DNA from: a virus
Lineage: Duplodnaviria; Heunggongvirae; Uroviricota; Caudoviricetes
IMG/VR virus record: IMGVR_UViG_2706794668_000011
Reading direction: 5' to 3' (one strand)
Length of the DNA: 64,000 nt
The position numbers were made by a program, and so were the translations under genes. A model generated the notes under the pieces. The model saw nothing but the letters and a program-made list of their open reading frames with translations, was not told the origin of the DNA and ran no database searches. Shown here piece by piece: positions 1-64,000 of this stretch (positions within the stretch are counted from its first letter, which is position 1; each line of letters begins with the position of its first letter).

Positions 1-906
1 GTGGATAGCGCACGCGCCCTTATTGCCCGGGGATGGGGAGTAAGCTTAGTCAGCCGTTGTCTCCGGGTGTCGCGTGCGCAGTTGCACGTCATTCTCAGAC
101 GAACCGATGACTGGATGGATGGCCGCCGCAGTCGTCACACTGATGATACGGATGTGCTTCTCCGTATACACCATGTTATCGGAGAGCTGCCCACGTATGG
201 TTATCGTCGGGTATGGGCGCTGCTTCGCAGACAGGCAGAACTTGATGGTATGCCTGCGATCAATGCCAAACGTGTTTACCGGATCATGCGCCAGAATGCG
301 CTGTTGCTTGAGCGAAAACCTGCTGTACCGCCATCGAAACGGGCACATACAGGCAGAGTGGCCGTGAAAGAAAGCAATCAGCGATGGTGCTCTGACGGGT
401 TCGAGTTCTGCTGTGATAACGGAGAGAGACTGCGTGTCACGTTCGCGCTGGACTGCTGTGATCGTGAGGCACTGCACTGGGCGGTGACTACCGGCGGCTT
501 CAACAGTGAAACAGTACAGGACGTCATGCTGGGAGCGGTGGAACGCCGCTTCGGCAACGATCTTCCGTCGTCTCCAGTGGAGTGGCTGACGGATAATGGT
601 TCATGCTACCGGGCTAATGAAACACGCCAGTTCGCCCGGATGTTGGGACTTGAACCGAAGAACACGGCGGTGCGGAGTCCGGAGAGTAACGGAATAGCAG
701 AGAGCTTCGTGAAAACGATAAAGCGTGACTACATCAGTATCATGCCCAAACCAGACGGGTTAACGGCAGCAAAGAACCTTGCAGAGGCGTTCGAGCATTA
801 TAACGAATGGCATCCGCATAGTGCGCTGGGTTATCGCTCGCCACGGGAATATCTGCGGCAGCGGGCTTGTAATGGGTTAAGTGATAACAGATGTCTGGAA
901 ATATAG
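1..906 (+). CDS. insD: IS2 transposase OrfB (InsD), GTG start at window edge
   Basis: 301-aa ORF from track; sequence recognised as IS2 InsD (IS3-family DDE transposase). Confidence 0.9.
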
Positions 907-917
907 GGGCAAATCCA
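1..917 (+). mobile_element. IS2 insertion sequence, right-hand ~0.9 kb (left end and orfA lie upstream of the window)
   Basis: Complete InsD-type ORF at 1-906 followed by terminal sequence ggggcaaatcca ending at 917, recognised from memory as the IS2 right end; DNA downstream is phage-type. Confidence 0.85.
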
Positions 918-1498
918 ATACATCCATTAACAAAGCCATTCCAACAATGCCTGACGTCGGTATCGATGCGCAGGAGTTAAAGGATATCGGCTTTCGTCTC
1001 GTGCTTAGTGGGCATTACCACAACCACAAAGAGGTCATTCCTGGAGTTATCAGTGTCGGTGCACTGACCCATCAAAATTGGGGAGATGTTGGATCTCTGG
1101 CTGGTTACATGATCGTAAACCCGGACGGCAGTTTCAGTCACTACGAAACCAGTGCGCCTAAATTCATTAACCTGGAAGATGATGTTGCTGATGACCAAAT
1201 TCGCGGCAACTACGTGCGTTTCCGCGCCGTAATTGAGAACGATGAAGAAGGCATTAAGTACCAGAACATCCTCAAAACAATGGGCGCAAAAGGTGTCGTG
1301 TGCAACTTCATCCGTAAGTCATCAATGATGGAAGGGACAGCCAGCACAACTGAAACCAGCAAAATCGATAGCCTGGGAGAGTCGGTATCTGCTTATTGCA
1401 AGATTGTCCACGATACTGACGGCGGATTTGATCTGAGCAAGTTGGATATTTTGTGTCAGGAAATCCTCACCGAAGCGGAGAGTTCGGAGGCTGTGTGA
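918..1498 (+). pseudogene. 3' remnant of an SbcD/Mre11-like nuclease gene; 5' part displaced by the IS2 insertion
   Basis: Frame open from inside IS2 to stop at 1498; GHxH phosphoesterase motif (LSGHYHNH) typical of the C-terminal half of Mre11/SbcD; N-terminal metallophosphatase motifs absent; immediately upstream of the SbcC-like gene. Confidence 0.55.
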
Positions 1499-1727
1499 GA
1501 CAAAGTCGTTATGGGAGCTTTCGAGACTTTGCCATCACGATGAAAAGACTTGAACGAGGCCAGACGGTGATGTTTCACAAGCCCTACCCGCCACAAGGAA
1601 ATCCCGTAGCGTTTTATCTTGGAAGGTTAACCAGAAAAGGCGTATTGAGGCGCAGATCCTTCCCGGCGCATACGGAGTTCAGATTGAAAGAAGGTCAAAA
1701 GCTAACACACGGTATCAAAGGTGTTAT

Positions 1728-3644
1728 ATGAAGTTTTTAAAGCTCCAGGTTGAGAATTTTATGGCTATCGCCAGCGCGGAGGTCGAGTTAGATCAGCGTG
1801 GTTTAGTGCTCATTCAGGGTGTTAATAGTGATGATAGTTCCGCATCAAGTAATGGCTCTGGAAAGTCAACGCTAATGAATAGCCTGATGTGGTGTCTTTA
1901 TGGCGAAACAGCTCATGGTGTGAAGGGTGACGATGTGTTGTCTACCGACCATGAAAAGAACTGTCGTGTTGCAGTAACCATCGAGGATGAAGGCAAGAGA
2001 TATGCGATCATTCGTCACCGTAAACACAAAGAGTTCAAAAATCGGCTTATCGTTCGTGGTGAAGACGGCGATATGACGAAAGGCAAAGATGCGCTGACGC
2101 AAGAGTTCGTCGAGCGTCTGATCGGTGCATCTAAAGAGGTTTTCATGGCTTCCATCTATGCGAGCCAAGAAGCTATGCCAGATTTACCTGGAATGTCCGA
2201 CAAAAACCTCAAAACCATCGTAGAAGAAGCCGCTGGCGTTGACAGACTGACACGCGCCTACGCTATTGCTCGTGAGCGAGCTAATGCAGCTGCCGCACGT
2301 ATGGATGTGGTTAAAACCAAATTGGAGTCGACAATCTCGACCATTGAGGCAACACAGTCAGAAATTGAGTCCGCGAAAGCCTCCTCTGAATCATGGGAAC
2401 AAGAGCGTTCTAAACGTTATGACGATGCCCTGGCTGGGCTGGCAAGTGCCGAAGTTGAGTTAACGGAAGTTGAACTTGAGATCCGCACTCTTCCCGAACA
2501 GATCCGTGATACCGAGAAGGCAATCGAAAGTGAGCGCAAAAAGTTAGCCTCAAAAGAAGAACATGACGCCAAGTTGCTCAAAGTTCGTGGTGCGATAACT
2601 GATATTCGGGCAAGCATCAAAGCTACAGAAAATAGTCAGGCTGATGCAATGAACCGCGCGCGTAATTTTAAGACCAAAGCAGAAGAGGTTGGTACTAAAG
2701 TGGGATCACCATGCCCTACTTGTGGCAAAGCCTACTGCGAAGAAGATCTATCAACGGTGAAGGAGAATTTCATTGAACAAGCACGTCAGGAAATTGGTCA
2801 GGCGAAGACACTTGCAGAGGCAATGGCTAAACACAAAACGAATCTTGAGAAAGCGTTAAGCATTGAGTCTGCCCTTGTTAAAACGACACCTGATGTAACG
2901 GCTATCATTGCCCGGATTGAAGAGCTTACGAAACAACTCTCATCTTTGCGTCATCGTGAGAAGGAGATTGTTGCTATTGAGTCTCTTGTGACTCGTGCTC
3001 GTACTGAGGTCGATCGTATATCAAAAGAGATTAATCCGTTTATTGCTCTTATCGCCAGACACGAAGATAACCTGGTATCCAGTAAGTCTACCTTCAAGTC
3101 CTTAAAAGATGAGTTGAAGGCTATTCAGGAACAAACGTTGCTATTGGAAAAAGCTCGTCAGGTCTACTCTCCTGCCGGGGTGCGTTCTCATATTTTGACG
3201 TCTGTTACGCCTTTCCTGAATACACGCACTGCCGAGTATCTCAATACGTTGTCTGACGGGAATATTACTGCTGAGTGGTCGACGATGGATGTCACCAAAA
3301 AAGGTGAGTATCGCGACAAATTCAACATTAGTGTGCAGAAGAAAGGTTCAAGTAAGTCGTTCCAGACCCTCTCTGGTGGTGAGAAGCGGAAGGTTCGCAT
3401 TGCGTGTTCTTTGGCATTGCAGGATCTGGTTAGTAACCGGGCGAGTAAAAACATCGATTTGTTTATCGGCGACGAAATTGACGATGCACTCGATACAGCC
3501 GGTCTTGAACGCCTCATGGGTATTCTGGAGTCCAAAGCTCGCGAGCGAGGTACTGTGCTGATTATCTCCCATAAAGAGATGAAGTCATGGTTCCGGGAAA
3601 CTATTACGCTGGAAGTTAAAGAGGGGCGCAGCTATGTCGTTTAA
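1728..3644 (+). CDS. SbcC/Rad50-like recombination ATPase
   Basis: 638 aa; Walker A GSGKST near N-terminus, long coiled-coil middle, CxxC hook-like motif (CPTCGKAYC), ABC signature LSGGEKRK and Walker B LFIGDEIDD at C-terminus. Confidence 0.8.
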   Translation: MKFLKLQVENFMAIASAEVELDQRGLVLIQGVNSDDSSASSNGSGKSTLMNSLMWCLYGETAHGVKGDDVLSTDHEKNCRVAVTIEDEGKRYAIIRHRKHKEFKNRLIVRGEDGDMTKGKDALTQEFVERLIGASKEVFMASIYASQEAMPDLPGMSDKNLKTIVEEAAGVDRLTRAYAIARERANAAAARMDVVKTKLESTISTIEATQSEIESAKASSESWEQERSKRYDDALAGLASAEVELTEVELEIRTLPEQIRDTEKAIESERKKLASKEEHDAKLLKVRGAITDIRASIKATENSQADAMNRARNFKTKAEEVGTKVGSPCPTCGKAYCEEDLSTVKENFIEQARQEIGQAKTLAEAMAKHKTNLEKALSIESALVKTTPDVTAIIARIEELTKQLSSLRHREKEIVAIESLVTRARTEVDRISKEINPFIALIARHEDNLVSSKSTFKSLKDELKAIQEQTLLLEKARQVYSPAGVRSHILTSVTPFLNTRTAEYLNTLSDGNITAEWSTMDVTKKGEYRDKFNISVQKKGSSKSFQTLSGGEKRKVRIACSLALQDLVSNRASKNIDLFIGDEIDDALDTAGLERLMGILESKARERGTVLIISHKEMKSWFRETITLEVKEGRSYVV

Positions 3645-5029: not shown

Positions 5030-7345
5030 ATGATAAGCATCGTAAAACGTAACGGCCAAACAGAGCCGTTATCCGAAGAAAAATACAACCGCGTCGTAAT
5101 GTATGGCGTAGAAGGCATTCGTGGTGTAAGCGCATCCGCTGTAGCAATGGGAGCTGCGGCCAGCATTTTTGATGGGATGACCACCAGCCAGTTGCATGAG
5201 GCTTTGGTTAAATCTGCCGCTGATTTGATCTCACCAGAAGCACCAAATTACTCACAGGTGGCTGCCCGCCTGAACATTTTTAAAATCCGCAAAGATGCCT
5301 TCGGTCGTTACGACTATCCGAACTTCTACCAACACATTGTCAAGAACGTTAACAAGGGCGTTTATGACAAGGATTTGCTGACACATTATTCGTTTGAAGA
5401 GATCGAAGAACTCGGTAATTACATTAAGCCGAAACGTGACGATCTTTTTGGCTATGCAGCTACGGTGCAGTTGCAAAGCAAATACCTCGTTCAAAACCGT
5501 GTTACTGGTGAGATTCATGAGGGGCCGCAACATATCTATATGCTGGTAGGCATGTGTCTGTTCCAGAATTGGGAAGACGACTGCGCTGGCAAAACACGTA
5601 TGGAGATGGTCAAAGGTTTCTATGACGTTACAAGTACGTTCAAACTGTCTCTGCCCACACCAATCATGGCCGGCGTCCGTACTCCAACCCGTCAGTTCTC
5701 CAGTTGTGTGCTGATTGAGTCTGGCGATAGTCTGAAAGGGATTAGTGCAGCTTCAGCCGCAATTATCGACTACGTTTCACGTCGTGCTGGAATTGGTATT
5801 GGTTTTGGCCGTATCCGTGCGCTGGGCAGCGAGATCCGCAATGGTGAAGCCACCCATACCGGAGTTATTCCATTCCTGAAGCATTTCCAGACGGCTGTTA
5901 AATCTTGTTCGCAAGGTGGTGTTCGTGGTGGCGCAGCAACAGCGTTTTACCCGATCTGGCATCTTGAAGTTGAAAGTCTGCTGGTGGTGAAAAATAACCG
6001 TGGTATTGATGAAAACCGCGTTCGCCATCTTGATTACGGCGTCATGAGTAACCGTCTAATGTACCGTCGACTCGTCAGAAGCGAGAACATCACTCTGTTC
6101 AGCCCGCATGATGTGCCTGATATGTACGAAGCCTTCTTCACAGACCAGGAGCTGTTTGAAAAGCTGTACCATAAATACGAAGCCGATGATTCAATTCGCA
6201 AGAAGTCAGTACCTGCCATTGAGCTGTTCTCATCTCTGATGCAGGAACGAGCGTCCACGGGCCGAATTTATATTGCGAACGTCGATCATATTAATGAGCA
6301 TGGCGCTTTCATTCCTGCTCTTGCACCTGTCCGCCAGTCAAACCTGTGTATGGAGATCACCCTACCTACCCGTCCACTGGCATTTACCGACGACCCGAAC
6401 GGTGAGATCGCGCTATGCACTTTATCCGCTTTTAACCTCGGAGCCATCCGTTCACTGGAGTCTCTTAAAGAGGTGGCGTTCTATGCCGTTGCTGCACTGG
6501 ATTCGTTACTGGATTATCAAGACTATCCGATGGAGGCAGCCGAAGTGCCTGCCAAAGCTCGTCGTAGCCTGGGGATCGGTGTAACCAACTTTGCTTATTA
6601 CCTGGCAAAGAATGGCATTCGTTATTCTGATACCGCTGGTAATAAACTGGTGCATGAAACGTTCGAAGCTATCCAGTATTACCTTCTTGATGCCAGCTGC
6701 CAACTTGCTGAAGCAAAAGGTGAGTGTGACTGGTTTGAGCAGACCAAGTACGCAATTGGTCAGTTGCCGATCGACCATTACCGTTCTTCATTAGACGAAA
6801 GTGGCGAAACCAACTTTGAGTTAAAGATGCCGTGGGAAGAACTGCGTGAACGTATTGCAAAATACGGTCTTCGCAACTCCACACTGACGGCACAAATGCC
6901 ATGCGAGACTTCCAGCCAGATCACTAATTCCACAAACGGCATCGAACCGCCTCGTGGACCGGTGTCGGTGAAATCTTCTAAGGACGGCATCGTTAAGATG
7001 GTCGTGCCTGAGATTGAAAAACTGAAGGAACAGTATGAATACCTGTGGGATATGCCGGACAACCGCGGCTATCTGACAAAGGTGGCGATCATCCAGAAGT
7101 TCTTTGACCAGGCTATTTCGGCCAATACCAACTATGACCCTTCTCGCTTTGAAGGCGATAAAGTCCCAATGATGACGCTACTGTCAGATTTGCTTCTCGC
7201 CTACAAGATGGGAGTTAAAACGCTTTACTACCACAACACCAGAGATGGGGCAGGAAAGCGTGATGACGACGAACCGCAGAATCCACTGACGCAAGCTGTA
7301 GCCGTCGAGCCAGAAGATGAGTGCGACGGAGCCTGCAAAATCTGA
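5030..7345 (+). CDS. nrdA: ribonucleoside-diphosphate reductase large subunit (class Ia)
   Basis: 771 aa; collinear with E. coli NrdA as remembered, including active-site region SCVLIE and C-terminal CxxxxC tail (CDGACKI). Confidence 0.95.
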   Translation: MISIVKRNGQTEPLSEEKYNRVVMYGVEGIRGVSASAVAMGAAASIFDGMTTSQLHEALVKSAADLISPEAPNYSQVAARLNIFKIRKDAFGRYDYPNFYQHIVKNVNKGVYDKDLLTHYSFEEIEELGNYIKPKRDDLFGYAATVQLQSKYLVQNRVTGEIHEGPQHIYMLVGMCLFQNWEDDCAGKTRMEMVKGFYDVTSTFKLSLPTPIMAGVRTPTRQFSSCVLIESGDSLKGISAASAAIIDYVSRRAGIGIGFGRIRALGSEIRNGEATHTGVIPFLKHFQTAVKSCSQGGVRGGAATAFYPIWHLEVESLLVVKNNRGIDENRVRHLDYGVMSNRLMYRRLVRSENITLFSPHDVPDMYEAFFTDQELFEKLYHKYEADDSIRKKSVPAIELFSSLMQERASTGRIYIANVDHINEHGAFIPALAPVRQSNLCMEITLPTRPLAFTDDPNGEIALCTLSAFNLGAIRSLESLKEVAFYAVAALDSLLDYQDYPMEAAEVPAKARRSLGIGVTNFAYYLAKNGIRYSDTAGNKLVHETFEAIQYYLLDASCQLAEAKGECDWFEQTKYAIGQLPIDHYRSSLDESGETNFELKMPWEELRERIAKYGLRNSTLTAQMPCETSSQITNSTNGIEPPRGPVSVKSSKDGIVKMVVPEIEKLKEQYEYLWDMPDNRGYLTKVAIIQKFFDQAISANTNYDPSRFEGDKVPMMTLLSDLLLAYKMGVKTLYYHNTRDGAGKRDDDEPQNPLTQAVAVEPEDECDGACKI

Positions 7346-7404
7346 CATATGGTGGGGTGTATCCCCACCTTCTCTTTGATTTGTAAGCCTTGTTTAAACA
7401 AATA

Positions 7405-7424
7405 GGATAACAACTTGTTTAAAC
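7405..7424. promoter_or_regulatory. motif A copy (ggataacaacttgtttaaac) upstream of nrdB
   Basis: AACAA-N-TTGTT dyad 27 nt upstream of nrdB ATG; adjacent palindrome ttgtttaaacaa at 7391-7402. Confidence 0.55.
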
Positions 7425-7450
7425 ACATCAAAAAGCAAAAGGAAAAACAC

Positions 7451-8592
7451 ATGTCATATTCAACGTTCCGTTTGGGTGCTAATGATGCAACCAAAGAGCC
7501 TATGTTCCTCGGACAATNNNNNNNNNNNNNNNNNNNNNNNNNNNNNNNNNNNNNNNNNNNNNNNNNNNNNNNNNNNNNNNNNNNNNNNNNNNNNNNNNNN
7601 NNNNNNNNNNNNNNNNNNNNNNNNNNNNNNNNNNNNNNNNNNNNNNNNNNNNNNNNNNNNNNNNNNNNNNNNNNNNNNNNNNNNNNNNNNNNNNNNNNNN
7701 NNNNNNNNNNNNNNNNNNNNNNNNNNNNNNNNNNNNNNNNNNNNNNNNNNNNNNNNNNNNNNNNNNNNNNNCGTGGGTTGAAACATGGTCTTTCTCTGAG
7801 ACTATCCATAGCCGCAGCTACACCCACATTATTCGTGGCATGGTGGACGATCCGAGCATTGTTTTTGACGGTATTGTTACGGATGAAGAAATCATCAACC
7901 GAGCGATCAGTATCTCTGCTGAATATGACAGGCTTTATGGGATGACCTGCGAGCGCCAGTCGTTAGGCGAGAAGGAATTTGAGCGTCTGTACGTAAATGA
8001 ATATGGCTGGGAGCCATATCCTTTGCACCGTCAGCTTTTCCGCACGTTGGTGTCCATTAATGCGCTTGAGGCGATCCGTTTCTATGTAAGTTTTGCATGT
8101 ACGTTTGCCTTTGGCGAACGGAAGTTGCTTGAGGGTAACACCAAAATTATGCGCTTTATTGCCCGTGATGAAGCTCTGCATTGCGAAGGAACTGAACGCA
8201 TGATCCGCTTCATGCGTACCGGTCGCGAAGGTTTATTGTGGAAAGAGATTGCTGCTGATGAAGAAAACGTCATTTACGACACCATGAAATCAGTCGCCGA
8301 ACAAGAAATGAACTGGGCCGAGTATCTCTTCAAAGACGGTTCGATGATTGGTTTAAACGCGGATATTTTGAAGACCTATGTAAAATACCGCACCAATCTG
8401 GCTATGAATCGTCTTGGCCTGAAGGCTTTATTTCCAGAGGTTACCACCGATCCGCTGGTCTGGATGAACAAGTGGTTGTTAACCGACACACTGCAAATTG
8501 CACCACAAGAGGCAGAGCAAAGCACATATCTGGTAGGTCAGATCGATTCTACCGTGGACAAGGCTTCTCTAAGCCAGTTTGCAGACCTGTGA
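7451..8592 (+). CDS. nrdB: ribonucleoside-diphosphate reductase small subunit, interrupted by an assembly gap
   Basis: N-terminus MSYSTFRLGANDATKEPMFLGQ and post-gap region VETWSFSETIHSRSYTHII match E. coli NrdB as remembered; the two parts are out of frame across the N run, so the gap size is only approximate. Confidence 0.85.
7518..7771. other. assembly gap (254 N)
   Basis: run of N in the sequence. Confidence 0.99.
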
Positions 8593-8669
8593 ACCGATAC
8601 AAAGCATTATGTAACCTGGCAACGCTGGGCCACAATGGATCACAAGAATTAAGAAGGAACAAAACTAGC

Positions 8670-9539
8670 ATGAACTTTACCAAACTGACTGACCACCTGA
8701 AACTTGCCACCGATCGTCTCATTGGATTTAAGCCAGAACCATATGAGTTGCATGAAGGTCATGGTGTAGCTACTGAAAGTATTTACAAGATGGTCGATCA
8801 GTTTCATGAACTCTTCCAGCATCCGAGACGCGTTATGCCGACACCAGAGCTGCTTCGTCTCCGTGCAAGCCTGATTCATGAAGAAGCTGTAGTGGAAGGT
8901 ATTCCAGCTGCAATGAATGGGGATATTGAGCAACTGCTGGATGCAATGGCCGACTTTTTATACGTTGGTGTTGGTACGATGGTCGCCATCAAAGGTGGTA
9001 TTTCTACCGGCATGACCTATTACACGCAGGAACAGAGCATTGATCGCTTTATGCAGACAATTTTTGTGCCCGGTAACACTGTTTTCGATGATATGGCAAT
9101 GCCATTTCAGGAAGCTCGTGAGGCGTCATGTATGCTCGAAGAGCTGGCAGATAAACTTGAGAACAAGACTGTTAAGGATTCTGAGCTGATTCAGGAACTG
9201 CGCCGTGTCATGAACAAAATCTATGTGGCGTGCATGATGACCTATCGACTGGCTGATTTCCTCGGTATCAATGTAGTCGAGCTGGTTGGCGAAATTCATC
9301 GGTCTAACATGACAAAATTATGGCCTGCTGATGTAGAGGAACGTCGCCAGGCTGTGGCCAACTGCAAATACGACTCTTCAGACCTGGGATTTCGCCATGC
9401 TGATGGCACCGATAAGATGATCGGTTTTCGAATTTCCGATGGAAAGATTCTGAAGTCTCCAACCTATAGTGATGTCGATTTATCCTCCTTTGTTGAGCAA
9501 GCTAAAGCCTCAGCAATGTACGGAATGATCAAAAAATAA
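8670..9539 (+). CDS. putative all-alpha nucleotide pyrophosphohydrolase (MazG/dimeric-dUTPase-like)
   Basis: 290 aa from first ATG after nrdB with RBS aaggaa; acidic motif HEEAVVEG...DIEQLLDAMAD and later EIHRSNMTK resemble MazG-family metal-binding helices. Confidence 0.4.
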   Translation: MNFTKLTDHLKLATDRLIGFKPEPYELHEGHGVATESIYKMVDQFHELFQHPRRVMPTPELLRLRASLIHEEAVVEGIPAAMNGDIEQLLDAMADFLYVGVGTMVAIKGGISTGMTYYTQEQSIDRFMQTIFVPGNTVFDDMAMPFQEAREASCMLEELADKLENKTVKDSELIQELRRVMNKIYVACMMTYRLADFLGINVVELVGEIHRSNMTKLWPADVEERRQAVANCKYDSSDLGFRHADGTDKMIGFRISDGKILKSPTYSDVDLSSFVEQAKASAMYGMIKK

Positions 9540-9541
9540 TT

Positions 9542-9562
9542 GTAGGTGATTATCTACTAATG
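9542..9562. promoter_or_regulatory. motif B copy (gtaggtgattatctactaatg)
   Basis: Starts 3 nt after the upstream stop codon. Confidence 0.4.
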
Positions 9563-9606
9563 TATATTTGATTTGCGTATAAAACTCTGGAACGACTATT
9601 CTTTTT

Positions 9607-9630
9607 GGTGGCCTATGGCCACCATTTTTT
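9607..9630 (+). terminator. rho-independent terminator
   Basis: ggtggcc/ggccacc stem followed by atttttt. Confidence 0.8.
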
Positions 9631-9706
9631 ATCTATCTGGTCTTGTTTTATCAATGAATGTAAACTCACGTGATAAATAATTGATTACTTATCTTCGTGA
9701 GGTTTT

Positions 9707-10810: not shown

Positions 10811-10811
10811 T

Positions 10812-11225
10812 ATGGCAAGAGGTATGTATGTCTTATGCGAAATTGAAGGTGTGCTGGCAAATACCAGCCATCGTAAATCTGTACCTGACACGGATGCAGG
10901 CCAGCTCATTGCCGGTGATGAACTCATTTTCCCCACCAGCCGTATGTTGCGTGGTTTTGCTCGCTCAGGGGCTGAAGTGGTGCTTATCAGTAGCCGCTCT
11001 GAAACTCTTGAAGCGCCCACTAAACGATGGCTGAAAGATTTTGGCGTTGATTACGACTGGCTTCATCTCGTACCGAATGGCACCAGTTATGAGAAGCATA
11101 TTAAGCGCACATTAGCGGAGCATAAAGGCGATCTGCTTATCGCTGCGCTGGTGCACGATCCTCGACTCCGTGCCGCTTTAGCTGACTCTCATCATAGACC
11201 GGTCATCTATGAGGTGAGCAAATGA
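10812..11225 (+). CDS. hypothetical protein
   Basis: ATG directly after thyA stop; 3' end overlaps DHFR start; function not recognised. Confidence 0.45.
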   Translation: MARGMYVLCEIEGVLANTSHRKSVPDTDAGQLIAGDELIFPTSRMLRGFARSGAEVVLISSRSETLEAPTKRWLKDFGVDYDWLHLVPNGTSYEKHIKRTLAEHKGDLLIAALVHDPRLRAALADSHHRPVIYEVSK

Positions 11226-12342: not shown

Positions 12343-12403
12343 AAATTGTTCGCCTCTTCGACATTGCGACAATAAAACTCTCAAAATGGGTTAAGGATAA
12401 AAA

Positions 12404-12823: not shown

Positions 12824-12832
12824 GGAGTTCTG

Positions 12833-13390: not shown

Positions 13391-13396
13391 AACAAA

Positions 13397-14531: not shown

Positions 14532-14542
14532 CGAGAAAGAAG

Positions 14543-55202: not shown

Positions 55203-55538
55203 ATGGAAAGACAAACGTTTAATTGGTATCCAGATTACGAATCTGAAAAGAGCGTAAAACCGAATGTAACGGTACTTAATTTTGGTGATGACTACGAGCA
55301 GCGACAGGCTCAAGGTCTTAATCGTATTAAAGAAGAATGGTCGTTAACCTTTACCAGATCATACAACGAAATTAATGCAATCGATGACTTCCTTACTGAG
55401 CGATCAGGTGTTGAATCGTTCTATTGGGTTAATCCAAGAGGCAAGCAGATTGTAGTTGTATGTGACAGTCATACGGTCAAGAGATATCAGGGGTACTGTG
55501 TCTTAACTGCTACATTCAGACAAGTATTTGAGGCTTAA
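55203..55538 (+). CDS. minor tail protein, lambda gpM-like
   Basis: 111 aa; FGDDYEQR...GLN pattern as in lambda M (FGDGYSQR...GLN). Confidence 0.7.
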   Translation: MERQTFNWYPDYESEKSVKPNVTVLNFGDDYEQRQAQGLNRIKEEWSLTFTRSYNEINAIDDFLTERSGVESFYWVNPRGKQIVVVCDSHTVKRYQGYCVLTATFRQVFEA

Positions 55539-55620: not shown

Positions 55621-56319
55621 ATGGGAATTAAAGCTGATATTCAGAGCTTATCTCCCTCTGCACTCATTGAGTTGTTCGTACTGGATATGTCGAACACAAC
55701 TTCAGGGGGGAAGCTATTCTTCCACGCCGGAACAAACGAACTGATGCAACCGGTCGTCTGGCAAGGAGTGACATACGAGCCGTGGCCAATCAAAGCATCA
55801 GGCTTTGACAAAACTGGCCAGGGAACGTTGCCACGTCCAAAAATTCAGGTATCGAACTTTGCCGGAACCGTCTCTGCGGAAGTTCAGGCGAACGACGATC
55901 TTGTTGGCTGCCGCATTATTCGCAAGATGACGCTGGCTCGCTTCCTCGATGCCGTTAATTTTAAAGACGGCAACCCAACAGCAGATCCAAACCAACATTT
56001 CCCGGATGAAATGTGGTTTATCGAACAGAAAACTCTCGAAACTCATCAGGTTGTCGAGTTTGAATTGTCCAGTGTGTTCGATTTGATGGGGGTACAACTG
56101 CCGTATCGTCAGATCATTAAAAACACCTGCCCGTGGAAATACCGAGGGCCAGAATGCGGCTATACCGGTCCATATTTCGACAAAAATAACCAGCAGACGT
56201 CTATGTCTGGTGCGGATTACTGCACAAAACGTTATGACGCCTGTAATGCGCGTCGGAATTATTTTGCCGACGGTGTGATCCATTTTGGTGGATTTATTGG
56301 AGCTACGCGGTATGGGTAA
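55621..56319 (+). CDS. minor tail protein, lambda gpL-like
   Basis: 232 aa from ATG with RBS aagga; ARFLDAVNF and CxW(K/T)YRG...ECGY(T/S)GP motifs as in lambda L; the track start 55588 lies inside a hairpin. Confidence 0.75.
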   Translation: MGIKADIQSLSPSALIELFVLDMSNTTSGGKLFFHAGTNELMQPVVWQGVTYEPWPIKASGFDKTGQGTLPRPKIQVSNFAGTVSAEVQANDDLVGCRIIRKMTLARFLDAVNFKDGNPTADPNQHFPDEMWFIEQKTLETHQVVEFELSSVFDLMGVQLPYRQIIKNTCPWKYRGPECGYTGPYFDKNNQQTSMSGADYCTKRYDACNARRNYFADGVIHFGGFIGATRYG

Positions 56320-57109
56320 TAAAGCAATCCCTGAGCTTGGCTCTGACGTTATGCAGCAAATCTATCTCTGCGCCATAAATCGCTACCCTAATGAAGCGTG
56401 TGGCTTTCTGGTTAGAACTAATGGCGACAAATATCGCTTTATGGAAGCGCGGAATGTTTCGGAGAACCCGCAGAACACTTTTGTAATGCACGTTGACGAC
56501 ATTATGGCGGCTGAGGATGCGGGTGATGTTATCGCAATCTGGCATTCACATACTGATGAATCAGCAGAAGCATCTGATGCCGATCGTGCAGGCTGCGAAG
56601 CGACGGAAGTTCCGTGGATGATTCTGGCTATTCGCAAGAATGTTGAGGGAGATGCCCCTTTCCATTTTAGCGAGATGAATGTGATCACACCTGATGGTTT
56701 CGAAATGCCATACCTGTGCAGACCGTATGTATTTGGCGTATTCGATTGCTGGATGTTGTGTCGGGACTATTTGAAGCGTGAGTTTAACGTCGAACTAAAC
56801 CCGAACGCACACCTGCATATTCCATCGTGGTACACCGGCGATAACGACATTCTCGACCAGAACTACCGAAACGAAGGATTGGTACGGCTTGCGCCCGGAA
56901 CAGAACCTCAACGTGGGGACGTCTTCTTTATCCAATACGGAAAAATGCCTGACCACTGTGCGGTTTATATCGGCGATGGAATGATTCTTCATCACCAGAT
57001 CGACCGCCTTAGTTGTCGTGCTTATTACGGCGGGATGTATCAGAAACATACGACGCATCACTTGCGTCACAGAGACTTGCTCAAGGGAGATGAGACGTGT
57101 CTGAGTTAG
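56312..57109 (+). CDS. tail assembly protein, lambda gpK-like (JAB/MPN plus NlpC/P60-like regions)
   Basis: HSHTDES...SDAD metalloprotease-like motif and downstream Cys/His motif (FDCWML ... H); ATG overlaps L stop. Confidence 0.7.
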   Translation: MGNKAIPELGSDVMQQIYLCAINRYPNEACGFLVRTNGDKYRFMEARNVSENPQNTFVMHVDDIMAAEDAGDVIAIWHSHTDESAEASDADRAGCEATEVPWMILAIRKNVEGDAPFHFSEMNVITPDGFEMPYLCRPYVFGVFDCWMLCRDYLKREFNVELNPNAHLHIPSWYTGDNDILDQNYRNEGLVRLAPGTEPQRGDVFFIQYGKMPDHCAVYIGDGMILHHQIDRLSCRAYYGGMYQKHTTHHLRHRDLLKGDETCLS

Positions 57110-57690
57110 TTCATGTGCAGCTTGGCGGCCCTATGGCCAAACATTTTGGCCGCCACTGGCATCTAAAGGTGCGCAATACAAAACAGGCTCTGGATTTAAT
57201 TGAGGCCAATAAGCCTGGTTTTAAAGCATGGATGAAGCGCAATATCAAAACCTATGACAGATACCACATCCAGATCACCAATAAACAGGGCCACAAGTGG
57301 TCTGTGGACGAGAGTGAATATCAGATGATGGGGCAGTCTGACAACATTGCCAAAATCCGCATTACCCCTGTTCCGCGAGGAAGCGGCGGATCTGCTTTTG
57401 GGTGGTTTCAGACGGTAGTAGGGGCCGCTTTGTTGGTTGTATCGGCGGTAATGATGCCCGCTCTTGCCCCTCTCGGTTTGTCACTGATGATGGGCGGTAT
57501 AGCGCAAATCATATCTCCGCAAGCCACTAACGAAAGTGTGAGGCAGGCGGATAACTCGAACTCTTATTACTTTGATGGACCTCAAAACACAACAAACCAG
57601 GGGAACCCTGTACAGCTTATCTATGGCGAGGAAATTTTAGTTGGCTCACAGGTCGTGAGTTCTTCTATCACCATCGACCAGCTTATGTAA
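57097..57690 (+). CDS. tail assembly protein, lambda gpI-like (GTG start)
   Basis: 197 aa; RBS agggag; central hydrophobic stretch; position between K-like and J-like genes. Confidence 0.65.
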   Translation: MSELVHVQLGGPMAKHFGRHWHLKVRNTKQALDLIEANKPGFKAWMKRNIKTYDRYHIQITNKQGHKWSVDESEYQMMGQSDNIAKIRITPVPRGSGGSAFGWFQTVVGAALLVVSAVMMPALAPLGLSLMMGGIAQIISPQATNESVRQADNSNSYYFDGPQNTTNQGNPVQLIYGEEILVGSQVVSSSITIDQLM

Positions 57691-57706: not shown

Positions 57707-60700
57707 ATGGAACAGTTCAAGAAGAAAAAGTTACCTCTATTAATTGCAGGTTCTGGTGGCAAAAAAAGTAGCAAAAGCTCTAGTCGCACACCAGTTGAAG
57801 CAGACGATACCGTAAATTCTCGTGCTATGGCCTCTATTCTCGATCTTCTTGGAGAAGGCGTAATTGGCGGCTTGGTAAATGGCGCAAGATCTATTTTTGT
57901 CGACGATTTGCCCATAGTAAATGAAGACGGCTCTTCAAACTTTAGCGGAATTTCATGGGATTTTCGAGACGGCTCGCAAGACCAGACACCAATGTCTGGC
58001 TTTGATTTCGTCGAAACACCTAAATCGATCAATATCCAACTAAAGAAATCGCATTATGTGACGGTTTCAATAGATAACGATGAGGCCGATCGTGTTCGAG
58101 TCATCATGAAGTTCCCTTCTCTGCGAAGAATAGACCAAAAAACGGGTGATACAAACGGCACTACCGTTGAGTATAAGTTCCAGATCTCAAATGGAGATTC
58201 AACATTTGTAGATGTGGTCGCAGAAGGTGAAAAAAACGTTGGTATTAAGTTAACAGCGAAGAAAACCGGTGCTTATTATCGTAGTTATGAGCTGAAGTTA
58301 CCCAAGCCAGGTCGGGCATACAGTGTTCGAGTAGTTCGTATTACTGATGATAACAGCGGTCAGTATCTTTATAACGATACATGGGTGGACTCAATCGGTG
58401 AGATCGTTGATACACCGATGAACTACCCAAACTCTGCGTTGGTGGGACTGAAGGTTAATTCTGAGCAGTTTGGCGGCTCTATGCCTTCTCGTTCCTATCT
58501 GGTGCGGGGATTAAAAATTCGCGTACCATCAAACTACAACGAGGCTAGCAACACTTATGATGGCGTATGGGATGGCTCTTTTAAGCTGTTGTCATCTTCA
58601 AACCCTGCGTGGATTCTCTTCGACTTGCTTACCAATTCTCGATATGGGCTTGGTCAGTATGTGTCGGAATCTATGATTGATCTCGGCCAACTGTACCAGA
58701 TCGGTCGATATTGTGACGAAGAGGTTGATGATGGCTTTGGTGGTAAAGAGAAACGCTTTGCAATCAATACGCAGATCACCAGTAGACAGGATGCATACCG
58801 ACTAATTCAGGATATTGCCGGTGCATTCCGCGGCATGGTGTTTTGGGCTGGTGGCATGGTTAACATCATGCAGGATAGCCCATCAGATCCAGTAATGATG
58901 TTTACCAACTCGAACGTCAAAGATGGATTGTTTACCTATAAAGGTTCTGCGCGTAAAGATCGCCCATCCGTTGCGCTCGTAACCTACAACAACAAGGAGG
59001 ACGGTTATAAGCAAAACATTGAGTACGTTGAAGATCAGGACGCAATGCGCCGTTATGGTGAGCGTAAAACAGAAGTCGTAGCATTTGGATGTACAAGCCG
59101 AGGCCAGGCTCACCGAGTTGGTTTGTGGCTTTTGTATACCGCCAGAATGGAGTCGGATGTAATTACATTTACTGCCGGTTTAGACGCCTCATTTCTGATG
59201 CCCGGTGAAACCGTTCTGATTCAGAACAAATATCGTGCAGGTAAACGTAACTCCGGTCGAATTGTGGAGTTTACCAAAAACAGCATCACTCTCGATGCGC
59301 CTGTGTCGTTAGCTAAAAGCGGCAGCTTTATTCGGATATTGAATCAGGAAGGCAAAATCGTTGAACGCGATGTTCTTGAAACTGGCGAAAACATAACAAA
59401 GGTTACGTTTTCAAAAGCTCTGTCGTCAGCGGAAACGCCTGTTTTGAACGGTGTATGGACAATCACAGAACCAGATCTCGAACCTATGCGCGTTCGCATC
59501 GTTAACATCGCTCAGGGGGAAACGTCGGGTAGCTTTGACATCACCGCTGTTGAGAACAATCCGTCTAAATATGAGGCAATCGACAATGGTGCAACGCTTA
59601 TCCCGCAGAATACGACGGTATTGGACCCGACTTACTCCAAGCCGTCTAATTTGCAAATCACCGAAGGGACTTATCTCTCAAGCCCAGGCAACCTGTCAGT
59701 AAAACTGACTGCAACATGGGAAGGGAAATCTCCAGAGTATTGGATCAGTTGGCGACGTTCTGATGAAAACAATGTATCGAACTGGCAATCGGCACGTGTA
59801 ACCGAAGAGCAATACGAAATCGTTAATGTCGCGGAGAATGGACGCTACGACTTCCAACTGTATGCGGTTTCATTCAACGGTAAAAAAACAGAGATTATCA
59901 GTACCGTTTATCAGGTGCTGGGCACAATGACACCGCCGGATGCACCAACGTCATTAACGGCCGTTGGAGACTATCGTAATGTGATACTGAATTGGGTTAA
60001 TCCAGATTCGGTAGACCTTGATCACATTAATGTTTACGCATCCCAGACCAACAATCTGGATACGGCGAAACTGATCGCAGAGTCTGCAAGCACCACCTTT
60101 ACACATTCTGGTCTTGGGGATAGTGAAACTTGGTATTACTGGGTTAGATCAGCAAATAAGCGTGGCATGTTGAGTCGCCCAAACTCAAATCTTGGTACAG
60201 AGGCCACAACGCGAGATGTTCTTTCATTTTTAGCCAATAAAATTACCTCGTCAGAACTTGGCCAGGCTTTAAATGAGGAAATTGACAGTAAGGCTTCTCA
60301 ACAAGCTGTTGATGAAATCAATAATCATATCGATCAGAGCGTCGAATCTCTGGAAGGTGAAATTTCCGCATTAAATAAGGAGCTAACGAGTAGTATCGAT
60401 GAGTTCAAAACATCGTTTACTGAACGCAGCGAGACACTGGAGAATGCGCAAAGCGAGCTTAGAACGGAAGTTTCTAGCACTCGGGAAAAAGTAGATGATG
60501 CATTACGACAAGTTGAAAATTCAAATGCAGCACTTATTGAACTACGTAATACAGTATCAAAACAAGGTGATTCTGTTGCTGGTGTCGTAGAAGCAGCAAA
60601 TGCGGCACTTGAAAATGCATCATCTTTAATTGCCGAAGAGCGTAAAGTTCGTGCACAAGCAGATCTAGCGAATGCTAAAAAGATAGAAACGATGAGATCA

Positions 60701-62413
60701 TCGGTTGATGAAAGTGTTGCGGCTGTAGAAGAAATGCGGAGAACGGTTGCTGAGGTAGGAAGAGTAAGTTCAGAAATCACAACTAATCTTGAAGCCATTT
60801 CTAAGACAAATATCGATCTTGCGTTGCGGCAGGACGAAGATCAGCACAGACAGCTGGTAAATAACGCGAAAATTGCCACGACTCAAAAGATTCTTGTCGA
60901 TGATGTGTCAGCAATGGCGTCTAAGGTTGAAGAGATACGAGCCGAGATTGGTGACAACATTCGAGCATCTATTCTCGAAGAAGCGACAGCCAGAACTGAT
61001 GGTGATAATGCGTTAGCCAATCGTGTGACACAATTACAGAGTAAATTTGAAGGTGATATCAGTGCCGCAATAAGGACCGAACAATCTGCAAGAGCATCGG
61101 CCAATGAGACTCTTTCAAAGCAGATCACACAACTGGAGTCTAAAGTAAATACTGATATTTCAACCGCTATTAGAGAAGAGCAACAAACAAGAGCAACGCA
61201 AGATGAAGCATTATCAAGGCAAATAACTCAACTTCAAACAAAAGTTAATAACGATATATCTGCTGCTATTAAAAGTGAGCAACAAGCGCGAGTTAGCGGC
61301 GATTCAGCGTTATCCACACAAATTAATCAATTGCAGGCAAAAGTAGATGATGACATATCAGCTGCTATTAATGAGGAAAGAGAAGCCAGAGCATCAGGCG
61401 ATAGTGCACTATCAAGAGAAGTTAGTAGTTTAAAAACAAAAACAGGTAAAGACATTGCAGCGGCGGTAGCAGTTGAAACCAAAGCAAGAACTGACGCTAA
61501 CGATGCATTATCCAGACAAATTTCTTCTCTTACTACGAGGGCTAATAATCTTCAGTCCTCGATAGAGCGAGAATCGACATCTCGTACAAGTCAGGATTCT
61601 GCCATTGCAAAAGACTTGGCAAGTTTTAAAACAAAAACTGCTAAGGATATAAGTGCAGCTGTTGCGGTTGAAACTCAAGCAAGAGCTGCCGCTGATACCG
61701 CATTGACGTCGCAGATTAACTCACTAAAGACACAAACAGGTAAAGATATAAAGGCTGCTGTAGCAGAAGAGACGAAAGCCAGAACTGATGCTGATGCAGC
61801 GCTTTCGACAAGGGTAACTAATCTCCAGTCGCAAACAACAAATTATATCAATGCAGCGATTACGTCAGAGTCAAAGGCCAGAACAAGTGCAGACAACGCT
61901 CTAGGAAAACGAATTGATACACTGAAAGCGTCTGTAGATGGAAATGTTGCCGTTATTCAGCAGCAGGCTTCTGCTATAGCTGACGCTAATAGAAAAGTAT
62001 CAACCTCGTACACATTGAAGATGGAAACTTCAACGAGTGGTGGGCAGAAGTATGTAGCGGGCATTGCGCTGGGTATTGATACAACGGGGCTTTCTCAGTT
62101 TTTGGTGCGGGCAGATCGATTTGGTTTGGTCAACAATGTTAATGGGAAGATCACAACGCCATTTGTTATCGAAAACAGCGTTGCGTATATGAACGGTGCT
62201 TATATCAAAGATGGCACTATCACAAACGCAAAGGTAGGTGACTTACAATCAACAAACTTCGTAAGAGGACGAGCCGGATGGAGATTTGGCAAAAACGGAA
62301 CGCTTGAGATTAACGGTAACAGTGGAGGAAATGGGAGATTAGTTATCAATGGGCAGAGAATCGACGTTTACGACGACAATAATGTACTCAGGGTAAGAAT
62401 TGGTCGACTTTGA
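57707..62413 (+). CDS. central tail fibre / host-specificity protein, lambda gpJ-like, with C-terminal coiled-coil repeat extension
   Basis: ~1568 aa; position after I-like gene; FN3-like middle region; ~10 periodic ~29-aa repeats (DISAAI..EQQAR..D.ALS.QI.QL) encoded at about 60990-61940. Confidence 0.85.
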   Translation: MEQFKKKKLPLLIAGSGGKKSSKSSSRTPVEADDTVNSRAMASILDLLGEGVIGGLVNGARSIFVDDLPIVNEDGSSNFSGISWDFRDGSQDQTPMSGFDFVETPKSINIQLKKSHYVTVSIDNDEADRVRVIMKFPSLRRIDQKTGDTNGTTVEYKFQISNGDSTFVDVVAEGEKNVGIKLTAKKTGAYYRSYELKLPKPGRAYSVRVVRITDDNSGQYLYNDTWVDSIGEIVDTPMNYPNSALVGLKVNSEQFGGSMPSRSYLVRGLKIRVPSNYNEASNTYDGVWDGSFKLLSSSNPAWILFDLLTNSRYGLGQYVSESMIDLGQLYQIGRYCDEEVDDGFGGKEKRFAINTQITSRQDAYRLIQDIAGAFRGMVFWAGGMVNIMQDSPSDPVMMFTNSNVKDGLFTYKGSARKDRPSVALVTYNNKEDGYKQNIEYVEDQDAMRRYGERKTEVVAFGCTSRGQAHRVGLWLLYTARMESDVITFTAGLDASFLMPGETVLIQNKYRAGKRNSGRIVEFTKNSITLDAPVSLAKSGSFIRILNQEGKIVERDVLETGENITKVTFSKALSSAETPVLNGVWTITEPDLEPMRVRIVNIAQGETSGSFDITAVENNPSKYEAIDNGATLIPQNTTVLDPTYSKPSNLQITEGTYLSSPGNLSVKLTATWEGKSPEYWISWRRSDENNVSNWQSARVTEEQYEIVNVAENGRYDFQLYAVSFNGKKTEIISTVYQVLGTMTPPDAPTSLTAVGDYRNVILNWVNPDSVDLDHINVYASQTNNLDTAKLIAESASTTFTHSGLGDSETWYYWVRSANKRGMLSRPNSNLGTEATTRDVLSFLANKITSSELGQALNEEIDSKASQQAVDEINNHIDQSVESLEGEISALNKELTSSIDEFKTSFTERSETLENAQSELRTEVSSTREKVDDALRQVENSNAALIELRNTVSKQGDSVAGVVEAANAALENASSLIAEERKVRAQADLANAKKIETMRSSVDESVAAVEEMRRTVAEVGRVSSEITTNLEAISKTNIDLALRQDEDQHRQLVNNAKIATTQKILVDDVSAMASKVEEIRAEIGDNIRASILEEATARTDGDNALANRVTQLQSKFEGDISAAIRTEQSARASANETLSKQITQLESKVNTDISTAIREEQQTRATQDEALSRQITQLQTKVNNDISAAIKSEQQARVSGDSALSTQINQLQAKVDDDISAAINEEREARASGDSALSREVSSLKTKTGKDIAAAVAVETKARTDANDALSRQISSLTTRANNLQSSIERESTSRTSQDSAIAKDLASFKTKTAKDISAAVAVETQARAAADTALTSQINSLKTQTGKDIKAAVAEETKARTDADAALSTRVTNLQSQTTNYINAAITSESKARTSADNALGKRIDTLKASVDGNVAVIQQQASAIADANRKVSTSYTLKMETSTSGGQKYVAGIALGIDTTGLSQFLVRADRFGLVNNVNGKITTPFVIENSVAYMNGAYIKDGTITNAKVGDLQSTNFVRGRAGWRFGKNGTLEINGNSGGNGRLVINGQRIDVYDDNNVLRVRIGRL

Positions 62414-62442
62414 TTATGGAAAAAAATATTTTTATCGATAAT

Positions 62443-62466
62443 AATAGGTAGTTACATACTTAATGG
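62443..62466. promoter_or_regulatory. motif B copy (aataggtagttacatacttaatgg)
   Basis: Between J-like stop and Stf-like start; followed by hairpin 62465-62485. Confidence 0.45.
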
Positions 62467-62507
62467 TGGGCAAGGATAGCCCACCTGATTAAAGGAGCAG
62501 ATTCAAC

Positions 62508-64000
62508 ATGTGGTACAGGGAAGGTACTATCACATTTACACAAGGCAGCAATACTCTGGTTGGTGCTGGGACAGCATGGAACGTTACGGCCAATGGTGTG
62601 TTGCCTGGCATGATTGTCGTCGCACCTGATAATAAATTGTATGAAATTAAAAGCGTAACAAATGACACAACCTTAACGTTGGTTGAAAACTATACTGGTG
62701 AAACGCAAAGTGATATACCATGTAGGATCATCACTACCTACGAAGGAGATTTGACACAGTTTAGTGCGAGATTTACGGCTCTTTTATCACGAATGTCTGG
62801 TGATGCAAAAACAGTTCGAAATTGGTTAACTGCCGTAGATGAAGTTACTCTTGAGCGAGAAGATGGCACTAATGTTAATGTAAAACCTCTTTCTAAGATT
62901 ATCGCGGAGCATAATAAGCACGTAGAATGGTATGAAAATAATACTAACGCAATTAATTCCGCAGGAGATAAAGCAAAACAGGCTGCGGCCAGTGCGTCGG
63001 CTGCGGCGAAGAGTGCGAATCTAGCAAGCAGTAAGGCTACTCAGGCATCTAATAGTGCGTTGGATGCTACAGCGTCTAAAAATGCAGCAAATAAAAGTGC
63101 ATCAAGTGCTAAAGCATCAGAAACAAGTGCTTTAGAGGCGAAGAACGCAGCTGCAATTTCTGCATCAACAGCTTCCACTAAGGCAACAGAAGCCACAAGT
63201 TCGGCTAATGCTGCGTTGGTCTCTAAAGAGGCTGCAAAATTATCTGAAATGAATGCTGCTTCTGGTGCTGGCAGTGCATCAACTTCTGCAAATCAGGCTA
63301 GAGAGTCGGCAAGGTCTGCGAAGACATCCGCTAATCAGGCTTCAACTTATGCGTCTGCTGCTAGAGCTTCGAAGGATGAAGCTAGCCGAAAGTCTGCTGA
63401 AGCCTCAACTAGTGCTAGTAACGCATCATCGAAATCAGCTGAATCTGCGGCTAAAGCAGAAGAAGCAAAGCAAAGCCAAACATCAGCACTTGCATCGGCA
63501 GAGCGTGCAGAGATAGCTGCTACTAGAGCAGAAAGAGCTTTGTCAGCGATATCATTACATGATGCCAGTTTGACTATGAAGGGTATTGTCAAATTAAGCA
63601 GTGAGACGAGCAGTTCGTCAGAAGAATTTGCAGCAACACCAAAAGCAGTAAAGGCTGCGTTTGATCTTGCTAAATCAAAATATACTGCAAATGACGCGAC
63701 AACTTCACAAAAAGGGCTGGTTCAATTAAGTAGCGATACAAATAACGCCTCTGAATCATTGGCCGCAACAACAAAAGCGGTTAAAAGTGTAAAGGATCTT
63801 GCTGATAGAAAAGCAGCAATCAACAGCCCAGCATTTACTGGCACACCAACGGCACCAACGGCGACTCAAGGCACTAATAATACGCAAATTGCCACAACTG
63901 CTTATGTAAGAGAAGCGATCTCAGGTCTTGTAGGATCATCACCTGAAGCGCTTGATACTCTTAATGAGTTGGCAAGGGCTTTGGGTGATGATCCCGATTT
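62508..64000 (+). CDS. side tail fibre protein, lambda Stf-like (3' end beyond window)
   Basis: RBS aaggag; open to the window end; Ala/Ser-rich repeats and KGLVQLSS...AATTKAVK...SPAFTGTPTAPTA..GTNNTQIATTAYV...PEALDTLNELA segment closely parallel lambda Stf as remembered. Confidence 0.8.
   Translation, partial: MWYREGTITFTQGSNTLVGAGTAWNVTANGVLPGMIVVAPDNKLYEIKSVTNDTTLTLVENYTGETQSDIPCRIITTYEGDLTQFSARFTALLSRMSGDAKTVRNWLTAVDEVTLEREDGTNVNVKPLSKIIAEHNKHVEWYENNTNAINSAGDKAKQAAASASAAAKSANLASSKATQASNSALDATASKNAANKSASSAKASETSALEAKNAAAISASTASTKATEATSSANAALVSKEAAKLSEMNAASGAGSASTSANQARESARSAKTSANQASTYASAARASKDEASRKSAEASTSASNASSKSAESAAKAEEAKQSQTSALASAERAEIAATRAERALSAISLHDASLTMKGIVKLSSETSSSSEEFAATPKAVKAAFDLAKSKYTANDATTSQKGLVQLSSDTNNASESLAATTKAVKSVKDLADRKAAINSPAFTGTPTAPTATQGTNNTQIATTAYVREAISGLVGSSPEALDTLNELARALGDDPD

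Follow-up and report, generated by a model that had tools for sequence, protein, structure and literature searches.

What kind of element does the virus record IMGVR_UViG_2706794668_000011 (IMG/VR; Caudoviricetes) represent: a prophage integrated in a chromosome, the genome of a virulent phage, a plasmid of phage descent, or a phage that lives as a plasmid? The 64,000-nt stretch analysed here (the window) had been described from its letters, in an initial annotation, as consistent with an SSU5/pHCM2-like phage-plasmid, and this identification was borne out by a near-identical S. sonnei plasmid (p1538007_2, ~100% identity), by collinearity with SSU5, and by the placement of that plasmid in the literature in a named clade, clade K. 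The window is almost certainly ~60% of an SSU5-supergroup phage-plasmid from the E. coli/Shigella branch (pWPMR2/p1538007_2-like, clade K), that is, of a temperate siphovirus that persists in the prophage state as a low-copy circular plasmid of ~107 kb, without integration. As a classification this is nothing new, the type of element having already been described: SSU5-group phage-plasmids have been catalogued and the lineage is already tracked in extensively drug-resistant S. sonnei. The only possibly new material is a dispersed palindrome, a candidate operator, together with two bipartite repeat arrays, all of which may be unreported.

Identity and placement of the element

Three overlapping pieces of the window (22-25 kb) were used as megablast queries. 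Positions 913-64000 matched circular Shigella sonnei plasmids at 99.98-100% nucleotide identity, and the near-identical plasmids (107-109 kb) are typed as non-mobilizable in PLSDB:

p1538007_2, CP104415.1, 107,358 bp, circular S. sonnei plasmid
pMHMC-002, NZ_CP053753.1, 109,437 bp, circular S. sonnei plasmid
LR213459.1, S. sonnei plasmid, third near-identical record

Gene order and proteins in these three records are the same as in the window, which differs from p1538007_2 and its kin in having IS2 in its SbcD-like gene and in lacking 4,915 bp of accessory genes (ead/Ea22-like, DUF551 and others). Relatives from E. coli, some deposited as plasmids and others as phages, matched at 92-100% nucleotide identity, with 85-98% of the query segments covered (NC_018651.1, the O104:H4 2009EL-2050 plasmid; CP054387.1, 'Escherichia phage CMS-2020a'; PhiR41_1; and Cyrano [pLF82, OV696614.1]), with 97-99% identity of the window to E. 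coli plasmids and to the phages PhiR41_1 and Cyrano. SSU5 itself aligned at 78-80% nucleotide identity over two conserved arms (918-21730 and 40941-62673), and between them, at 21.7-40.9 kb, megablast returned no match to SSU5 or pHCM2.

The plasmid p1538007_02 has been placed by name in clade K ('pWPMR2-like') of the SSU5 supergroup, a highly conserved clade mostly from extensively drug-resistant S. sonnei that neighbours clade J, the pSLy3 subgroup, and the lineage was found in 18% of UK isolates scanned (bioRxiv 10.1101/2025.09.12.675607). The closeness of the window to clade K is its closeness to p1538007_2 (99.98-100% over 913-64000 except for one 4.9-kb deletion), the comparison having been made with this plasmid and not with pWPMR2 itself. 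The supergroup as defined by Pfeifer et al. consists of SSU5_pHCM2, pSLy3, pKpn, and pMT1 (PMC7969092), and its replicons are extrachromosomal and 94-126 kb in size (PMC12977533), a range inside which the circular relatives fall (107-109 kb). The element belongs to the E. coli/Shigella branch (pWPMR2 clade K, beside the pSLy3 subgroup) and falls outside the Salmonella SSU5_pHCM2 group as strictly defined.

Of 5,426 complete E. coli genomes searched for the segment with head and packaging genes (41000-47800), 240 contained it, at 253 places, all on plasmids (253/253) and none on the chromosome (0/253). Therefore, an integrated lambdoid prophage, the alternative that the initial annotation had set against its own proposal, is excluded for the family. 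The window does have lambda-type tail tip genes, and the full element has a tyrosine recombinase, as such a prophage might; but the best matches are circular plasmids, neither an integrase nor an att site is present in the window, and there is no lambdoid early region, the replication and nucleotide modules being of the SSU5 type, which leaves this alternative extremely improbable for the window as well. Nor is there much to recommend a strictly virulent SSU5-like phage genome in place of a plasmid prophage. SSU5 was termed a virulent Salmonella-specific phage in one genome announcement (PMC5427195), but sequences near-identical to the window are resident plasmids in hundreds of isolates, and the IS2 element and a host metG-apbC cassette in the window are typical of long residence in cells; the probability of a virulent phage is negligible.

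Modules shared with SSU5 and pHCM2

The annotation of the near-identical records was transferred to the window by tblastn, resulting in 72 genes, the key ones of which were checked with profile libraries. SSU5 (NC_018843.1) and pHCM2 (NC_003385.1) were rebuilt from their loci, and proteins were counted as homologues at a coverage of at least 50%. Homologues in SSU5 and pHCM2 were found for 57-58 of the 72 window proteins, all collinear and with a median amino acid identity of 87% (summed identity divided by 72, 0.65), a degree of gene sharing that agrees with the proposed membership. The genes not common to SSU5 and pHCM2 cluster at 17.6-35.4 kb (TerB-like, toprim, HumD-like, apbC, metG, and several small open reading frames [ORFs]), and both genomes possess the same nucleotide-metabolism, head, and tail modules as the window. 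The genes for nucleotide and DNA metabolism are:

917-1498, plus strand, remnant of an SbcD-like metallophosphoesterase (residues 169-361; tblastn)
1728-3644, plus strand, SbcC-like ATPase (AAA_23, SMC_N, and SbcC_Walker_B domains)
5030-7345, plus strand, nrdA
7451-8592, plus strand, nrdB (N-run at 7518-7771)
8670-9539, plus strand, MazG/PRA-PH-like protein
9707-10810, plus strand, thyA
11222-11698, plus strand, DHFR
11698-12342, plus strand, AAA kinase-like protein
12833-13390, plus strand, 3'-5' exonuclease (RNase T-type)
14543-15136, plus strand, Dam
16136-16729, plus strand, RNase HI

The block at 5030-16729 is collinear with SSU5_078-090 (80-89% amino acid identity) and scores above Pfam cut-offs, including each of the NrdAB, ThyA, DHFR, RNase H, Dam, and exonuclease genes that had been named in the initial annotation. 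The SbcCD-like genes that it also listed (82-88% amino acid identity to SSU5 and pHCM2) stand in part, as the SbcC-like ATPase passes Pfam but the SbcD-like gene is only a 3' remnant cut by IS2. Its label of a T4/T5-like module is a fair functional description, with T4 the closer of the two; the nearest phage NrdA outside the SSU5 group is T4-like (~50% amino acid identity), compared to ~33% for the T5-like protein. An apparent division of nrdB into two ORFs was rejected as a frameshift: it corresponds to the masked run of 254 N at 7518-7771, with flanks identical to intact nrdB. Judged by domain content, the element supplies its own deoxynucleoside triphosphates (NrdAB, ThyA, DHFR, and the MazG-like enzyme) and processes its DNA with RNase H, the 3'-5' exonuclease, SbcCD, and Dam, while a DnaE polymerase, DnaB-like helicase, primase, ligase, and T4-like UvsX/UvsY/gp32 are encoded in the remaining 43 kb.

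The genes for packaging and the virion occupy the right-hand part of the window:

41076-41708, plus strand, terS-like DNA-binding protein (profile/tblastn)
41708-42964, plus strand, TerL
42991-44565, plus strand, portal
44587-45474, plus strand, DUF6651 protein
45500-46420, plus strand, major capsid protein
46518-49050, plus strand, head-tail genes
49124-49861, plus strand, Ig-domain (Big_2) tail protein
49929-50246, plus strand, G (ORF architecture)
50213-50596, plus strand, T, in the -1 frame (ORF architecture)
50604-55160, plus strand, tape measure protein, 1518 aa (lambda C-terminal domain)
55203-55538, plus strand, M (PF05939, 2.6e-35)
55621-56319, plus strand, L (PF05100, 1e-96)
56312-57109, plus strand, K (NlpC/P60 and JAB)
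57097-57690, plus strand, I (phrog_32 tail assembly, 7e-63)
57707-62413, plus strand, J (Phage-tail_3, FNIII-A_GpJ, Phage_Tail_Tip)
62508-64000, plus strand, Stf, side tail fibre (Phage_fiber_2 repeats; the window ends within it, after 497 of its 876 aa)

Packaging and head genes (41076-49861) have 80-97% amino acid identity to SSU5_001-012, and the structural and packaging ORFs mapped by tblastn from terS to J are all intact and 100% identical to those of p1538007_2. The lambda-type set of M, L, K, I, J, and Stf is complete, in lambda order and in the same Pfam/PHROG families, as had been read from the sequence, and the tape measure shares the lambda C-terminal domain, whereas the rest of the window genome is not lambdoid. 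A virion predicted from these genes would comprise TerS/TerL, portal, capsid protein, an Ig-decorated tail tube, the 1518-aa tape measure, the lambda-type M-L-K-I-J tip, and a side fibre. The -1 frame is open over 50213-50596, from within the end of G to a stop 8 nt short of the tape measure gene, and tail chaperones G and GT are inferred to arise by a -1 frameshift from this ORF architecture only; the lambda slippery site G_GGA_AAG is absent, and G and T have profile matches only to PHROG families of unknown function.

Replication, partition and recombination genes

Plasmid maintenance depends on genes that lie outside the window, in the rest of the same element as seen in the near-identical full-length records (Rep with iterons, ParA, DnaE, helicase, primase, and ligase). 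A RepB/RepA-family initiator, its gene flanked by at least 13 iterons of the form ACCGCTGACAGCATA, is located 1-3.5 kb upstream of the window start (CP104415 22326-24078), and a ParA-type ATPase that is 91% identical to SSU5_033 is located past the right end (CP104415 98469-99137). Neither protein was found in the window, from which the Rep iteron consensus is also absent (4 matches at 3 mismatches compared to 1.5 expected). Rep in the S. sonnei clade has only ~50% identity to its counterparts in SSU5, pHCM2, and Cyrano, compared to 89-99.5% for ParA, which fits the rule of 'conserved phage genes, variable plasmid genes'; the ParA, integrase, and helix-turn-helix (HTH) genes of Cyrano match those of the S. 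sonnei element at 97-99.5% identity, in contrast to its Rep initiator. The phage P1 has the same plasmid-prophage lifestyle, with an iteron-type Rep and a partition system in both, but is a myovirus with structural genes unrelated to those of the window.

The plasmid-type features to which the initial annotation had pointed are different ones, and in part (the in-window arrays, the ParB_N genes, and the lack of an integrase) its correct conclusion was reached on mistaken grounds. Repeat arrays do exist, with three units each at two places, and are kept in SSU5 and pHCM2, but they have a different, bipartite consensus and were rejected as Rep iterons. The ParB-like proteins belong to a block of six genes:

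37477-38157 and 38157-38825, plus strand, two ParB_N proteins (Pfam)
38822-39460, plus strand, ABC-type ATPase
rest of 37477-40879, plus strand, an 84-aa protein, a 296-aa protein (phrog_886), and an 88-aa protein

Both ParB_N domains pass Pfam, and the first protein aligns with Spo0J residues 23-171, but a role as the partition system is not supported: the score against the ParB family model TIGR00180 is 43 bits, below the cut-off of 58.45, the adjoining ATPase is ABC-type, and the ParA-type gene is elsewhere. The block lies directly upstream of the terminase genes with 88-98.6% amino acid identity to SSU5, and three of its six proteins (96-99%) exceed the capsid and most tail proteins in conservation. 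A defence-system reading of the ParB_N/ABC-ATPase block and a helicase gene (35838-37394) was rejected, as the PADLOC hits are partial and at the level of domains, with no complete system. A search of PDB sequences returned no usable match for the 296-aa protein or for the FljA-like protein described below. That there is no integrase holds for the 64-kb window, where none was found and the sole 'integrase core' (rve) domain is that of the IS2 transposase; the full element has a tyrosine recombinase beside an HTH 'putative repressor' (CP104415.1 4221-5705, with the HTH gene at 5319-5705, outside the window), so the absence is not diagnostic. These two proteins have counterparts in pHCM2 (84% and 65% identity) and in Cyrano (97%) but none in SSU5.

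Lesions private to this copy and the state of the phage

Two lesions set this copy apart from the near-identical plasmids:

1-917, plus strand, IS2, right-hand 917 bp (InsD transposase; rve/HTH_21), 99.7-99.9% identical to IS2 in many records
22024-22035, junction of a deletion of 4,915 bp compared to p1538007_2, with a 12-bp overlap (blastn)

The window begins inside IS2, which interrupts the SbcD-like gene, and the 4,915-bp deletion, according to protein mapping, removed the accessory genes noted above and fused two truncated ORFs. Among 72,556 PLSDB plasmids, the IS2/sbcD junction was found in none and the deletion junction in none. In pMHMC-002, IS2 is located within the region that is deleted in the window copy.

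Genomes of S. sonnei are rich in insertion sequences. A start inside IS2 and a junction seen in no PLSDB plasmid could accordingly reflect a cointegrate, in which IS2 joins this copy to another plasmid or to the chromosome. The data are accounted for just as well by a simple insertion of IS2, however, and the sister plasmid pMHMC-002, with its IS2 elsewhere, stays an ordinary 109-kb circle, making a cointegrate highly unlikely.

Several points weigh against the phage-plasmid reading. The replication initiator, the Rep iterons, and ParA are all outside the window, and its status as a plasmid is deduced from its match to complete records; the known sequence of this copy stops on the left inside IS2; and the IS2 insertion and private deletion could mark a decaying copy. 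The G/T overlap has no classical X_XXY_YYZ heptamer and only non-canonical candidates (GAAAAAG and GCA_AAG_TAA), the regulator that binds the palindrome remains at the candidate stage, and a literature search turned up no virion report for the S. sonnei clade itself.

The same lesions could suggest a phage-derived cryptic plasmid of this family, one that no longer makes virions and is inherited only vertically. Clade K is highly conserved with largely vertical inheritance in S. sonnei, and pHCM2 was historically termed cryptic (bioRxiv 10.1101/2025.09.12.675607); a Klebsiella SSU5-like plasmid, predicted to be an intact SSU5-like prophage, is characterised by its authors as a plasmid that defends its host against transferable DNA (PMC8969562). 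Against this, both lesions are in non-structural genes, the ORFs from terS to J are undamaged, and close relatives make particles. Cyrano has a copy number of 5.5 per cell and responds to ciprofloxacin with a 39-fold induction; its virion DNA was detected, and an observed siphovirus with a tail of ~259 nm was ascribed to it (PMC9928086). Packaging in virions has also been listed for several SSU5_pHCM2-type elements (PMC12977533). A cryptic plasmid is, on balance, unlikely, and the contig should be labelled a phage-plasmid, neither a 'cryptic plasmid' nor an integrated prophage.

A dispersed palindrome and a conserved non-coding region

The candidate global operator motif of the initial annotation proved to be strongly enriched. 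Exact copies of the palindrome AACAA-N-TTGTT number 10 in the window, compared to 0.14 expected from shuffles (~70-fold):

starts of AACAA-N-TTGTT: 7409, 17625, 18354, 23091, 27029, 27080, 30012, 30914, 31679, 41024

All 10 copies are intergenic, 12-123 nt upstream of plus-strand start codons (genes including nrdB and terS), and in the full element the palindrome also occurs upstream of the genes for the ParA-type ATPase and the DnaB-like helicase. The full plasmid and SSU5 each have 13 copies and pHCM2 has 15, at places orthologous to those of the window, and in aligned orthologous upstream regions from SSU5 and pHCM2 the extended form AGAAAACAANTTGTTT is kept exactly while the flanks diverge. 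The palindrome is usually ~13-15 nt downstream of a -10-like hexamer, the position expected for a repressor operator. A scan of 26.9-33.4 kb for the sigma-70 consensus gave fewer matches than shuffles; therefore, the promoter calls beside the palindromes rest on manual reading and conservation only. The pattern and placing of AACAA-N-TTGTT make it a credible candidate for a dispersed operator. Across viral contigs, the extended motif was found mostly as single chance matches, with clusters on contigs of ~90-112 kb. The form in which the motif was first written, AACAANNTTGTT, was rejected with 0 matches, the actual spacer being one base.

The palindromes at 30012, 30914, and 31679 lie in a region that has a long non-coding stretch and two repeat arrays:

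27627-29196, plus strand, conserved non-coding stretch, 1.6 kb
28027-28110, bipartite array 1, three units of ~30 bp, ACC(A/C)ACCT-N9-CAGGC(T/A)A
31541-31621, bipartite array 2, three units, same consensus, 3.5 kb from array 1
29197-32193, plus strand, six small unknown genes, most with a promoter-like element and the palindrome upstream

The non-coding stretch is ~68% identical to, and at the same position in, SSU5 and pHCM2. It consists of a G-rich half and an A+C-rich half, the latter (~75% A+C over 27900-28500) containing GCCATTACCC repeats and array 1. The bipartite pattern is conserved in SSU5 and pHCM2 and is confined, within the 105-kb genomes, to the two orthologous loci, and on their sequence the arrays look like protein-binding arrays. 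A structured or known RNA at 27.6-29.2 kb was rejected, with no Rfam match at the gathering threshold or at an E-value of up to 1 and no fold signal (z-score -0.71); the only weak Rfam matches were to terminator hairpins at 32.7 kb.

Possible regulators and inputs are found on both sides of this region:

23189-23208, plus strand, canonical LexA box TACTGTGTAAATGAACAGTA, 16 nt upstream of the HumD-like gene
23225-23614, plus strand, UmuD'/P1 HumD-like S24 peptidase gene
32815-37394, minus strand, block of three small genes, the FljA-family regulator, two unknown genes, and a DEAD/DEAH helicase (35838-37394)
34264-34782, minus strand, FljA-family regulator (PF03614, repressor of phase-1 flagellin, 1.4e-68; phrog_1444 'transcriptional repressor')

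The minus-strand block is the only long one in the window, and its FljA-family protein is a candidate lysogeny regulator. This protein (34264-34782) and the HTH protein beside the recombinase are the candidates for binding the palindrome. The LexA box before the HumD-like gene, together with the induction of Cyrano by ciprofloxacin, makes an SOS input likely; the humD region of P1 is 88% identical in nucleotides to the HumD-like region of the window, in which the LexA box is upstream.

Control of the element might then be exerted by one DNA-binding regulator at dispersed palindromic operators, situated just downstream of the sigma-70-like promoters of many operons. It is tentatively proposed, by analogy to the C1 regulon of P1, that AGAAAACAA-N-TTGTTT is the operator of one master regulator silencing many SSU5-supergroup promoters (nrdB, terS, ParA-type, DnaB-like helicase, and the row of small early genes), and that the 1.6-kb non-coding stretch and the two arrays form a switch or lytic-origin region, a possibility held at less than even weight. 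The resemblance would be to the C1 repressor acting at many dispersed operators, as a single motif is scattered at many promoters here, and not to the site itself, as the P1 C1 operator is an asymmetric 17-mer, unlike the AACAA-N-TTGTT palindrome. A homologue of C1 was not found here, although none was specifically sought. A literature search found nothing on the palindrome or on the arrays of the non-coding region and no such control described, and both offer handles on lysogeny control in a clinically widespread family.

Accessory genes and the variable parts of the virion

Much of what separates the window from SSU5 and pHCM2, both of which lack metG-apbC and the TerB-like, toprim, and HumD-like genes, lies in its accessory stretches:

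17661-21698, plus strand, stretch of accessory or unknown genes
17661-18086, plus strand, TerB-like gene (profile)
20013-21698, plus strand, DUF4942 protein with a methyltransferase-like C-terminus, 92% identical to SSU5_095
23652-24752, minus strand, apbC/mrp, full length (NCBIfam equivalog)
24910-26943, plus strand, metG, full length (NCBIfam equivalog)

The apbC/mrp and metG genes match their NCBIfam equivalogs at 759 and 1018 bits and keep the divergent arrangement of the chromosome, with ~90% nucleotide identity to the E. coli chromosomal locus. The cassette is common to the window and its E. coli plasmid relatives, occurring at 224 plasmid places in the E. coli genomes with 95-99% identity. 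From these sequence relations it looks like an old host capture that may give the host a second methionyl-tRNA synthetase; a literature search found no paper linking metG with SSU5.

In the head region, SSU5 (SSU5_006) and pHCM2 have an Ig-like gene after the capsid gene that is absent from the window at 46420-46518, where the capsid gene and the next gene are only 97 nt apart. Many E. coli relatives have an additional Ig-like-domain gene in the head region and also differ from the window in the tail-fibre end and the accessory regions. At the tail tip, the fibre and the C-terminus of J in SSU5 and pHCM2 are unlike those of the window; only the N-terminal 18% of the side fibre (62508-64000) is common to the SSU5 fibre, and the differing fibre suggests a receptor specificity different from that of SSU5. 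The 3' part of the J gene contains three diverged 68-nt repeats (61431-61792).

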